NCBI RefSeq assembly: GCF_988243305.1
Contig: NZ_OZ547136.1
DNA: 64,000 nt
Strand: one strand, 5' to 3'
A model generated the notes under the pieces. The model had not been told where the DNA came from, searched no databases, and saw nothing but the letters and a program-made list of their open reading frames with translations. A program made the translations under genes and the position numbers. This document shows, in pieces, positions 1-2,715 of the stretch. Each line of letters starts with the position of its first letter. The stretch's first letter is position 1.

Positions 1-293
1 ATGATCTGCACAGCATTCAGCTTCCAGAATCCGTACACTTTTCCACTCACACAGCTTTCTCAAAATACAGCCTATTGCTCTACGCTTCTCTCTGTAGAAC
101 ACCTGTCTTCGGTATTTTGGCGCAAATACTATGTGATATTTACAGTTCCATCGGGTGTGCGCTAAGCTCTTTTCGTTCCCCATTGGGACCCCCTTTTGAT
201 TTCTTGTTTGACACTTGCAGTTGCCAGACCGCAAGGTGTTTTAACAAATCAAAAGGGGTTTTAATAACTGGCTCAAAGCTGAAAGCTTTCCGG

Positions 294-320
294 AACCCCC
301 AGCCTAGCTGGGGGTTTTCT
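294..320 (+). terminator. Intrinsic terminator-like hairpin (cccccagc / gctggggg) followed by TTTTCT; would end a plus-strand transcript coming from upstream of the window
   Basis: 8-bp GC-rich inverted repeat with 3-nt loop followed by T-run, read directly. Confidence 0.5.
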
Positions 321-2293: not shown

Positions 2294-2369
2294 GGGTGAT
2301 TAGCTCAGCTGGGAGAGCACCTCCCTTACAAGGAGGGGGTCGGCGGTTCGATCCCGTCATCACCCACCA
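2294..2369 (+). tRNA. valY: tRNA-Val (anticodon UAC)
   Basis: Identical to the copy at 2052-2127. Confidence 0.97.
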
Positions 2370-2373
2370 CTTC

Positions 2374-2449
2374 GGGTCGTTAGCTCAGTTGGTAGAGCAG
2401 TTGACTTTTAATCAATTGGTCGCAGGTTCGAATCCTGCACGACCCACCA
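2374..2449 (+). tRNA. lysV: tRNA-Lys (anticodon UUU)
   Basis: 76 nt, GGGTCGTTAGCTCAGTTGGTAGAGC...anticodon loop gacTTTTAatc...CGACCCACCA; 4 bp after valY. Confidence 0.97.
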
Positions 2450-2453
2450 ATGT

Positions 2454-2481
2454 AAAAAAGCGCCCTAAAGGCGCTTTTTTG
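2454..2481 (+). terminator. Intrinsic terminator of the val-lys tRNA operon
   Basis: Hairpin agcgcc-ctaaa-ggcgct followed by TTTTTT. Confidence 0.8.
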
Positions 2482-2589
2482 CTATCTGCGATACTCAAAG
2501 ATTCGAACCTGCAGCAGGTTCGAGTTGAGCGCAGCGAAACAACGGAGCCGCTCGCGGCGACGGCCCGAAGGGCGAGCGAAGCGAGTCAT

Positions 2590-2648
2590 CCTGCACGACC
2601 CACCAATGCAAAAAAGCGCCCTAAAGGCGCTTTTTTGCTATCTGCAAT
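2590..2648 (+). repeat. Second copy of a 59-bp direct repeat (tRNA-Lys 3' end + terminator); first copy at 2434-2492
   Basis: cctgcacgacccaccaatg[t/c]aaaaaagcgccctaaaggcgcttttttgctatctgc[g/a]at occurs twice, 156 bp apart, 2 mismatches. Confidence 0.85.
2610..2637 (+). terminator. Duplicate intrinsic terminator hairpin
   Basis: Same hairpin and T-run as 2454-2481. Confidence 0.7.
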
Positions 2649-2658
2649 TTGCGAAATT

Positions 2659-2685
2659 GCCTGATGCGCTTCGCTTATCAGACCA
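2659..2685. repeat. REP-like palindromic unit
   Basis: tgcctgatgcgcttcgcttatcagacc resembles the REP consensus (gcctgatgcg...cttatcaggcc) and the copy at 19768-19805. Confidence 0.5.
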
Positions 2686-2715
2686 ACTATGTCCGGCAGT
2701 TCCCGTGCCTCTCAT

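Follow-up and report, generated by a model that had tools for sequence, protein, structure and literature searches.

The lysV 3′ region

The window, a 64,000-nt stretch of contig NZ_OZ547136.1 (assembly GCF_988243305.1), carries the tRNALys gene lysV, directly followed on the same strand by a tRNA-linked repeat, or TLR (Table 1). The repeat array begins inside the gene, at T-loop position 59, and extends over ~1.4 units, which gives the locus the look of a partial duplication around an insert. The direct repeat found by repeat search is 61 nt long with 97% identity, and its two copies differ at two positions (T2453/C2609 and G2490/A2646). An earlier sequence-only reading had placed a 59-bp repeat at 2434–2492 and 2590–2648; the duplication and its two mismatches are real, but each copy starts 2 nt earlier and takes in 18 nt of lysV, and the non-repeated stretch between the copies is 95 nt (2493–2587) instead of the 97 bp then given. 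The last 18 nt of the gene, ATCCTGCACGACCCACCA, occur at 2432–2449 and again at 2588–2605 with no mismatch. Both this 18-mer and a 36-nt terminator string are found exactly twice in the 64 kb, and none of the shuffled sequences gave two matches. The 95-nt body and one 61-nt repeat copy together make a unit of 156 bp.

The body consists of an antisense copy of the T-arm (a′), the sense 5′ strand of the T-stem with TTCGA (b) and a GC-rich core of 64 nt. The T-arm palindrome seen by the sequence-only reading, TCGAACCTGC-A-GCAGGTTCGA, is perfect (arms 2503–2512 and 2514–2523), as the repeat search confirmed; a′ and b pair as a hairpin that is retained in the alignment fold. The core contains a small hairpin (2547–2550/2555–2558), the family motif ACGGCCCGAAGGGCGAG (2560–2576) and a minimal GC-GAA-GC hairpin before GAGTC. 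In the second copy, GCAGGTTCGA is followed by 64 nt and then by ATCCTGCACGACCCACCA, which is a T-arm broken within its loop and bears out the interrupted T-loop described earlier. This copy was considered as a tRNA or pseudogene and rejected: ARAGORN and the Rfam tRNA model find no cloverleaf and make no tRNA call in 2450–2650. A protein-coding reading was also rejected, since the only ORFs here are mechanical calls, short and overlapping one another, and the longest runs through the tRNA genes.

Table 1. Features of the lysV 3′ region (window coordinates)
Feature	Position	Strand	Description and basis
lysV (tRNALys)	2374–2449	+	ARAGORN; Rfam tRNA model, 79.2 bits; K-12 annotation of the same locus
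Direct-repeat copy 1	2432–2492	+	Final 18 nt of lysV (T-loop position 59 to CCA) and 43-nt trailer
Terminator T1	2454–2480	.	AAAAAAGCGCC-CTAAA-GGCGCTTTTTT; inverted repeat and MFE-fold hairpin
RtT match (RF00391), 'RtT sRNA' of RefSeq	2480–2605	+	
TLR body	2493–2587	+	95 nt between the repeat copies, not repeated
a′, antisense copy of the lysV T-arm	2500–2512	+	GATTCGAACCTGC; 13/13 complementary to 2422–2434
b, sense T-stem 5′ strand and TTCGA	2514–2523	+	GCAGGTTCGA; direct copy of 2422–2431
TLR core	2524–2587	+	64 nt, conserved; common to other K-12 TLRs and other genera
Direct-repeat copy 2	2588–2648	+	tRNALys 3′-end mimic (2588–2605) and trailer with T2 (2610–2636)

Membership of the TLR/RtT family

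The element is very probably (probability of about 0.88) the lysV-linked copy of the enterobacterial TLR/RtT family, Rfam RF00391. The full model (1–130) matches on the plus strand at 51.6 bits (E = 1.6e-9), narrowly over the gathering score of 45, and RefSeq/PGAP gives the same element an ncRNA feature named 'RtT sRNA' in many genomes. The repeat family that includes the lysV element was reportedly described between 1978 and 1999. The K-12 locus holds the same unit. K-12 has 22 TLRs at 10 loci, in each of which 18–19 nt at the 3′ end are those of the upstream tRNA or rRNA; the lysV TLR has been deleted experimentally along with the other 21 copies, and the strain table reports its deletion over 96 bp under a name printed 'rIV' (PMC8144298), which we read as rlV.

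The 64-nt core also stands behind tRNATyr, tRNAArg, tRNAPro, tRNASer, other tRNALys genes and 5S rRNA, each copy ending in the 3′ end of its own gene. The printed K-12 TLR sequences have the same build, a common core and then the local gene 3′ end (Lys, Arg, Pro, Ser, Tyr and 5S). The Lys, Arg and Pro copies share the motif ..ACGGCCCGNAGGGCGAG..GAGTN, continued by ATCC; closely similar versions are present in the K-12 copies at Tyr, Ser and 5S and in other genera. In long-form TLRs, that of lysV included, the T-stem 5′ strand and TTCGA also precede the core.

The lysV copy departs from the model in its outer helix, which is not formed and carries mismatch marks in the Rfam alignment; its antisense segment has CAAAG in place of the expected GCAGG. 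A cognate antisense 9-mer was not found upstream in this copy, where the best match is 6/9 in a non-homologous place, against 8–9/9 in the Tyr, Arg, Ser and short Lys copies. Because a purine-rich GGAT is common to all classes, the test discriminates weakly (means of 7.2 matches of 9 for cognate and 6.2 for non-cognate pairs), and it is used here solely to show that the lysV subtype is without the helix. The missing outer helix is a degenerate trait of the lysV/lysQ subtype and no ground for exclusion from the family.

Terminators and transcription

T1 lies between an A-run and a T-run and therefore looks bidirectional. A simple terminator scan flagged neither T1 nor T2, likely because the two runs pair and lengthen the stem; both are terminators according to their fold and the literature. 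The sequence-only reading had offered, beside an integration scar, a local duplication that creates a second terminator. This description of the arrangement holds: the element is a local, partial tandem duplication, and its terminator is identical to the one before it.

In K-12, transcription of valU starts 9 nt upstream of the gene (window position 2043), a northern probe against the terminator detects the full-length valU transcript, with a predicted size of ~438 nt, RNase P removes the terminator by cutting 2–3 nt after CCA, and the lysV and lysQ terminators are identical (PMC4176162). From position 2043, ~438 nt lead to an end at 2480, which is the end of T1. A valU transcript with a predicted length that fits an end at T1 puts the body of the repeat after the terminator in use, and the literature thus largely answers which of the two acts: T1 ends the published transcript. 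T2 and the lysQ terminators are matched by the same northern probe (PMC4176162), and a minor product of read-through, ~594 nt long, may therefore exist.

From this layout, the body would be transcribed solely through read-through of T1. Read-through transcripts are expected to end at T2 and to bear a tRNA-like 3′ end, which could be trimmed by the same 3′-maturation nucleases, as in the cases of rtT of tyrT and RrB of rrnB. T2 would act chiefly as a back-up terminator and as a terminator facing the convergent xapR.

Copy number, synteny and age

An alignment of five strains gives a clean difference of 0, 1 or 2 times 156 bp at lysV, and the unit count combines in all ways with two alternative downstream flanks. 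The comparison of strains proposed earlier, to see whether some carry an island and others a single copy, was informative: some E. coli strains have a single copy (0 extra units) and others 1 or 2 extra units, and no island allele was found in the strains inspected. K-12 has one unit, NCTC9113 has two, and Nissle 1917 and E. coli B have none. At least one unit is present at valY–lysV in 2,306 of 5,426 complete E. coli genomes (42.5%, which is not a population frequency, because the collection is skewed to clinical lineages) and is absent in ~57%; presence is defined as at least 80% coverage of a query requiring at least one unit at valY–lysV, and genomes with 0 units cover 72–73%. The element is dispensable at the lysV locus, since more than half of the complete E. 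coli genomes are without it there. The TLR behind lysQ is polymorphic independently; some genomes have the lysQ copy and lack that of lysV, and some have two units at lysQ. Changes in unit count would come about by homologous recombination between the 61-nt direct repeats, and the lysV unit has probably also been exchanged with the near-identical copy behind lysQ.

Outside E. coli, the gltX-Val-Val-Val-Lys locus carries the element in Enterobacter cloacae (two units), Citrobacter sp. R56, an enterobacterial MAG and Erwinia persicina. In Pluralibacter gergoviae it stands behind a Val-Lys pair, and in Enterobacter sp. MGH 24 it lies ahead of xapR. Because it is syntenic across families, from Erwinia to Escherichia, the lysV copy is, judged by gene order, old. 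The empty E. coli alleles are probably losses, since the orthologous locus is filled in Enterobacter, Citrobacter, the MAG and Erwinia. The 3′ segment tracks species-specific changes in the tRNA, for example in Citrobacter tRNALys (..CACGCCCCACCA). In E. persicina, the TLR is at the same locus with a second terminator that does not repeat the first; duplication of the terminator is therefore not the defining event. A scan of genome contigs with the 16-base ACGGCCCGNAGGGCGAG is dominated by chance matches in GC-rich genomes; ~30 genuine Enterobacterales TLRs stand among the matches listed, the scan being no census and its TLR figures lower bounds.

Being a known and annotated TLR, placed behind the operon terminator and missing in more than half of E. 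coli, the lysV repeat is an ordinary member of its family and no new integration scar. For this window the result has little weight: the family is known, has an Rfam model, is annotated automatically by RefSeq and has been deleted experimentally. What is added here is the copy-number polymorphism in E. coli, the paralogy with lysQ, the synteny from Erwinia to Escherichia and the position behind the terminator that ends the transcript.

Comparison with related repeats

At the end of the lysT operon of K-12, the lysQ TLR is near-identical from tRNALys via T1, the body and T2 to ..GCTAT and has the same 156-bp period; it belongs to a different operon and is followed by different downstream DNA. 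The rtT/RttR repeats of the tyrT-tyrV operon are the founding members of RF00391, according to the part of PMC8144298 that cites Egan & Landy 1978 and Bosl & Kersten 1991. As at lysV, the T-loop of the tRNA in front is where their tandem units start, and these comprise an antisense T-arm, a sense T-stem with TTCGA, a homologous core (GAGCG..AGCGA..hairpin..CCCGAAGGGCGA..GAGT) and the last 18–19 nt of the tRNA itself. The tyrT copies score 133–137 bits with RF00391, against 47–52 bits for lysV. Unlike lysV, rtT has an intact closing helix of 9–10 bp, no terminator in the unit, a 178-bp period and four copies; it overlaps the tpr ORF and lies inside the transcribed operon. The rrA, rrB and rrF elements (of rrnA, rrnB and rrnD) belong to the same family and are likewise located between two terminators, T1 and T2 (PMC8144298). 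They share the core motif AACGTTGC..GCAACGGCCCGGAGGG with the lysV TLR and differ from it in that the upstream gene is 5S rRNA and that T1 and T2 are different terminators.

Origin and function

The duplicated tRNA segment of lysV runs from the T-loop to CCA, and in this it resembles the T-loop class of tRNA att sites. The sequence-only reading had proposed an att-site scar. On such an account, the crossover of a tRNA-targeting integrative element within the T-loop or 3′ end of lysV would have been followed by decay or imprecise excision, which left a displaced tRNA 3′ fragment. The presence/absence polymorphism at lysV agrees with this, as does the strain-to-strain difference in the DNA that directly follows, which holds either xapR-xapB or a FlxA-like gene, and the attL/attR sites of tyrosine-integrase elements have the same direct repeat from T-loop to 3′ end with an intact tRNA gene at the left. 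Unlike such sites, the lysV repeat encloses neither integrase nor cargo, and the core divides the T-arm of its second copy. In the E. coli strains and other genera examined, neither an integrase nor a phage or island gene was found at or between the repeats; only 95 nt separate the copies, and the neighbours in the strains inspected are gltX and xapR, or a FlxA-like gene and yfeR. The repeat is not confined to an att core, since it holds 43 nt of non-tRNA trailer past CCA, through the terminator; the alleles are 0, 1 or 2 tandem units of exactly 156 bp and not island versus empty; the number of TLR units is not tied to the type of downstream flank; and the core is dispersed behind six kinds of gene, each with its own 3′ end. 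BLAST of 2493–2605 against phage and plasmid collections returned only chromosomal fragments filed as phage or plasmid (purU-tyrT-narI pieces, gltX pieces and Mb-sized 'plasmids'). A scan of IMG/VR with ACGGCCCGNAGGGCGAG gave 48 contigs with few true TLRs, among them two val-val-val-lys operon fragments which, as they adjoin gltX, give no sign of a phage-borne copy. Collectively, this makes the scar very improbable and brings it close to refutation. Hardly credible is a locus-specific accident, in which a one-off duplication of the lysV 3′ end and terminator enclosed unrelated filler and had a second terminator as its sole effect. The identical terminators, the nearly perfect repeat and the fact that the first terminator already ends the published transcript would suit it, but the supposed filler matches the Rfam RtT model, with a core common to other K-12 loci and other genera, and the E. 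persicina TLR has a second terminator that was not copied. The family match has already refuted this account.

Two further readings accept the TLR and concern what it does or where it came from. We know of no specific function for tRNA-linked TLRs. The lysV copy could still belong to a functional small RNA or processing element, acting in trans or cis when read through, for example as a decoy or competitor for interactions of tRNA 3′ ends and acceptor stems, or as a sponge like RrA/B/F and 3′ETS-leuZ; this is fairly unlikely. Structure is conserved at the level of the family: across lysV-type copies the inner hairpin has undergone compensatory changes, and in three pairs both bases differ. The hairpin after GGGCGAG is kept with many stem sequences (81 stem base pairs versus 37 ± 4.8 in shuffled sequences, maximum 54, n = 500), and in Pseudescherichia vulneris a tRNAArg variant is matched in the antisense segment as well as in the 3′ segment. 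The element is retained at the same locus from Erwinia to Escherichia. CsrA and Hfq bind the rrA/rrB/rrF RNAs, which contain GGA motifs, in vitro; tRNA-linked TLRs, by contrast, are predicted to be CsrA non-binders, with scores <0.01, and an early claim of a role for rtT in the stringent response was retracted (PMC8144298). Like the lysV TLR, 3′ETS-leuZ is a non-tRNA RNA encoded where a tRNA operon ends, and it demonstrates that a trailer can have a function (PMC8144298); it is abundantly made and located upstream of its terminator, whereas the lysV TLR is behind one, and no sequence similarity between the two was seen. Against a function also speak the absence of the element from the lysV locus in ~57% of complete E. 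coli genomes, the efficiency of the terminator before it, and the decayed closing helix and minimal last hairpin of this copy. The long 3′ trailers on lys pre-tRNAs of the lysT operon, which by their coordinates hold TLR spacers, are described as removed by exonucleases (PMC4176162).

Alternatively, TLRs might be relics of a mobile or self-propagating element whose core enters tRNA genes at T-loop positions 58/59, or 5S rRNA at its 3′ end, and duplicates the 3′ part of the target, the lysV copy being one such insertion. Long-form cores, including that of lysV, do sit between ..GGTTCGA and ATCC.. of the local tRNA, and every TLR core is followed by the 3′ end of its own gene; filled and empty alleles differ by exactly the body and one copy of the target segment, as with a target-site duplication; and TLR/tRNA pairings vary by genus, extending in P. 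vulneris to tRNAPro(tgg), outside the K-12 loci. The reading is nevertheless quite unlikely. The duplicated target ranges from 18 nt to the whole unit, unlike the product of a transposase, no associated enzyme is known, and BLAST of both collections found no copies on phages or plasmids. The lysV copy is old, being syntenic across families, and its variation in E. coli would reflect recombination between the repeats and with lysQ. The body also holds the target-derived a′ and b, which simple insertion leaves unexplained.

Thus, the lysV element is best taken as a long-established TLR, and the wider family remains a small puzzle, with a conserved structure and a 3′ end that is in every case taken from the tRNA beside it. 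It is tempting to propose that the core is the footprint of an uncharacterized propagation that targets tRNA T-loop positions 58/59 and the 5S 3′ end and rebuilds the 3′ end of its target, or else a structured RNA with some role in tRNA-operon biology; either is unlikely. Compensatory hairpins, 3′ segments that track the tRNA and genus-specific pairings are compatible with both ideas and show neither. If one of them were true, the natural alleles with 0, 1 or 2 units at lysV and lysQ would provide a ready genetic test system.

Identity and layout of the lysV-linked element

The locus in the window is E. coli valU-valX-valY-lysV. The element 3′ of lysV is a known and already annotated member of the tRNA-linked repeat (TLR) family. 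It gives a full-length match to RtT RNA (RF00391), and in RefSeq annotation it is an ncRNA, ‘RtT sRNA’ (locus BLAST, 5,426 complete E. coli genomes). K-12 MG1655 carries the unit, which is absent from the NC_000913.3 annotation. In K-12, 22 TLRs are known at ten loci (Rudd 1999; PMC8144298). [quoted passage not shown] The strain table with all 22 TLRs includes the lysV-linked copy, with 96 bp deleted, under the printed name ‘rIV’, read here as rlV (PMC8144298).

Features of the lysV locus and its surroundings in the window
Feature	Position	Strand or orientation	Basis or remark
STnc490 (RF01405)	193-316	-	strong Rfam match, 146 bits
gltX	left part, opens the window	-	neighbour of the valU operon
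Promoter, sigma-70-like, strong	2007-2034	upstream of tRNA genes	11/12 matches
tRNA-Val genes, three	2052-2127, 2172-2247, 2294-2369	+	tRNA gene calls
lysV, tRNA-Lys(UUU)	2374-2449	+	tRNA gene call
Direct repeat, 61 nt	2432-2492 / 2588-2648		repeat search; mismatches at 2453/2609 and 2490/2646
RtT RNA (RF00391)	2480-2605		Rfam scan; 51.6 bits, gathering score 45
T-arm copy, perfect	2500-2512	antisense	between the repeat copies
T-stem 5′ strand + TTCGA	2514-2523	sense	direct copy
REP-like palindrome	2659-2686		GCCTGATGCGCTTCGCTTATCAGACC
xapR, LysR-type ORF	3615 down to 2716	convergent on tRNA genes	ORF call

The direct repeat, which differs at two positions, comprises the final 18 nt of lysV (T-loop position 59 to CCA) and a 43-nt trailer with the hairpin AAAAAAGCGCC-CTAAA-GGCGCTTTTTT. 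In the 95 nt separating its copies, an antisense T-arm copy precedes a sense copy of the T-stem 5′ strand with TTCGA, and together they form the palindrome described in the sequence-only reading. By this layout the second repeat copy reads GCAGGTTCGA, 64 nt, ATCCTGCACGACCCACCA, i.e. a tRNA 3′ half with an interrupted T-loop. All three features were thus correctly noticed, the repeat needing only slightly corrected coordinates. The 64-kb window has exactly two occurrences of the lysV 18-mer and two of the terminator string; shuffled sequences never gave two matches of either. For the segment 2450-2650, the predicted fold (-90.5 kcal/mol) is much more stable than those of shuffles (z = -8.0), and the bulk of this energy comes from the palindrome and the terminators of both repeat copies (T1 and T2).

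The REP-like palindrome separates T2 from the end of xapR, and one of its arms is 86% complementary, as an inverted repeat, to the TLR core at 2575-2588, probably a coincidence of GC-rich repeats. STnc490 lies at the left window edge, beyond the gltX 3′ end. The yfeD-gltX gap of an O157:H7 strain contains an IS200/IS605 tnpA and a tnpB gene, so an element of this kind may end just outside the window or reach into it.

Anatomy of the family

The sequences of the other K-12 TLR loci were compared. Every K-12 TLR shares a core of roughly AACGTTGC-NNNN-GCAACGGCCCGNAGGGCGAG-(short hairpin)-GAGT(A/C), directly followed by the 3′ end of the gene at that locus: ATCCTGCACGACCCACCA for tRNA-Lys, ATCCTCCCGGATGCACCA for tRNA-Arg, ATCCTCTATCACCGACCA for tRNA-Pro, ATCCCCCCCTCACCGCCA for tRNA-Ser, ATCCTTCCCCCACCACCA for tRNA-Tyr and AACTGCCAGGCAT for 5S rRNA. 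In short forms (lysT/W/Y/Z, Arg, rrn), an antisense GGAT is joined straight to AACGTTGC. In the long forms of Tyr, Pro, Ser, lysV and lysQ, the core is preceded by an antisense T-arm and a sense T-stem with TTCGA, so that it appears to be placed inside a T-loop, after position 58 and before position 59. Among these long forms, the lysV/lysQ subtype is peculiar in its decayed outer helix (CAAAG in place of the expected GCAGG) and its variant central hairpin, GCCG-CTCG-CGGC. These two features explain why the lysV copy scores low as RtT, whereas the proK and tyrT TLRs reach 101-137 bits. In K-12, the lysQ locus (L007, 1278-1560) is near-identical to window 2374-2650 throughout tRNA-Lys, T1, TLR and T2; such near-identity would give a template for exchange between both loci.

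Copy number in E. coli

In a five-strain alignment, unit counts at lysV differ cleanly by 0, 1 or 2 times exactly 156 bp. Nissle 1917 and O157:H7 86-24 have no unit, the window, K-12 and 2015C-3905 one, and NCTC9113 two; the empty allele is lysV with a single terminator and nothing more. A query built to need at least one unit beside valY reached the 80% coverage cut-off in 2,306 of the 5,426 complete E. coli genomes (42.5%), zero-unit genomes reaching 72-73%; in about one-sixth of evenly sampled rows, the best match lay at lysQ instead. The lysQ copy is likewise polymorphic (0, 1 or 2 units), and a few genomes have two units at lysV or at lysQ. The DNA just 3′ of T2 is dimorphic in the E. coli loci L001-L004, breaking ∼5 nt past the repeat end (∼2650-2720 onward) into two unrelated flanks. 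One consists of REP-like sequence and xapR-DUF1427-xapB (window, K-12, Nissle, NCTC9113), the other of a FlxA-like gene with yfeR directly next (O157:H7 86-24, 2015C-3905). All four combinations of TLR presence and flank type were seen, indicating that TLR count varies independently of the flank. In E. coli APEC 102026 (L184, 1172-1236), the valU operon includes a truncated fourth copy of tRNA-Val under the annotation ‘tRNA-OTHER’; tRNA genes of this operon thus also vary in tandem copy number.

Distribution, age and origin

A pattern scan covered one genome per species, plus viral sequences, with many chance matches in GC-rich genomes. Among the 181 matches listed, at least 30 have a tRNA 3′ end after the core and the cognate tRNA 50-290 nt upstream; the tRNAs are Lys, Arg, Pro-cgg and Pro-tgg, and the taxa Citrobacter, Escherichia albertii, Enterobacter, Superficieibacter, Pluralibacter, Pseudescherichia and Erwinia. 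The orthologous gltX/Val-Val-Val-Lys locus carries a lysV-type TLR in Enterobacter cloacae (two units), Citrobacter sp. R56, an enterobacterial MAG and Erwinia persicina. A lysV-type TLR also follows a Val-Lys pair in Pluralibacter gergoviae, on a contig ending short of the gltX position, and in Enterobacter sp. MGH 24 lies between tRNA-Lys and a xapR homologue. The orthologous loci indicate that the TLR at lysV predates E. coli, which makes loss the best reading of the empty alleles in this species. As the second terminator in Erwinia is no copy of the first, comparison points to the 61-nt repeat as a later homogenisation and not a defining feature. In Pseudescherichia vulneris (L122), a TLR follows tRNA-Pro(tgg), a pairing not among the K-12 loci. 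TLR-like cores in an Orbaceae genome (Zophobihabitans entericus, L105) and an unclassified gammaproteobacterial MAG (L136) suggest that the family may extend beyond Enterobacteriaceae and Erwiniaceae. On IMG/VR contig 2718218443_000003 (L039, ∼11058, - strand), the tRNA-like 3′ end of a lysV-type TLR breaks off after ATCC, where the sequence passes into the 3′ end of a xapR-like gene, apparently a natural deletion of the second tRNA fragment and T2.

The sequence-only reading favoured an att-site scar left by an integrase, an understandable analogy since the duplicated tRNA piece begins in the T-loop. However, the repeated stretch continues through the terminator, alleles differ in their number of tandem units, and the core recurs at other loci as a family module; neither integrase nor cargo was found at the locus in any strain or genus examined. 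Locus alignment did reveal the single-copy strains that this reading envisaged, but islands in none of the others. The lysV duplication is therefore not such a scar. A mobile-element origin of TLRs more broadly has low probability, no TLR having been found on a genuine phage or plasmid in the phage and plasmid collections. Several records filed there are clearly pieces of chromosome or entire chromosomes (purU-tyrT-narI region, gltX pieces), including L013, L014, L015, several Mb-sized ‘plasmid’ records, and AFYI01000003.1 and AGRM01000005.1 in the phage collection; they could mislead searches for mobile-element homologues. The alternative offered in the same reading, a local tandem duplication creating a second terminator, is borne out by the repeat search and by T2, so that its interpretation is partly supported.

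Signs of constraint

The TLR 3′ segment tracks species-specific tRNA changes. In Citrobacter sp. R56, a compensated acceptor-stem change in tRNA-Lys recurs as the same C in its TLRs. In P. vulneris, the sequence ATCCTCCT of tRNA-Arg is matched in the TLR by the 3′ segment as well as its antisense partner (AGGAGGAT). Ten lysV-type copies have double changes at three predicted pairs of the inner hairpin (GCCG/CGGC, GTCG/CGAC, GCCA/TGGC). The GGGCGAG-to-GAGT hairpin is retained with many unrelated stem sequences, with 81 stem bp in 30 distinct segments versus 37 ± 4.8 in shuffled ones (maximum 54 in 500). Collectively, tRNA tracking and compensatory changes suggest that the family is a structured nucleic acid subject to constraint, with these features at their weakest in the lysV copy.

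Transcription

In K-12, the valU operon was mapped by Agrawal, Mohanty and Kushner, with a transcription start 9 nt upstream of valU, a full-length transcript of predicted size ∼438 nt detected by a terminator probe, and an RNase P cut 2-3 nt past the lysV CCA that takes off the terminator, which is identical to that of lysQ (PMC4176162). This start corresponds to window 2043, and a count of 438 nt from it leads to 2480, the final T of T1. The repeat body (2493-2587) would thus lie behind the operative terminator, to be transcribed only through T1 read-through, an arrangement like that of rrB between rrnB T1 and T2. T2, with an A-run and a T-run as in T1, faces convergent xapR and is probably a back-up and bidirectional terminator. 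In the lysT operon, lys pre-tRNAs keep long 3′ trailers that are removed by exonucleases (PMC4176162); by coordinates, these trailers contain the TLR spacers.
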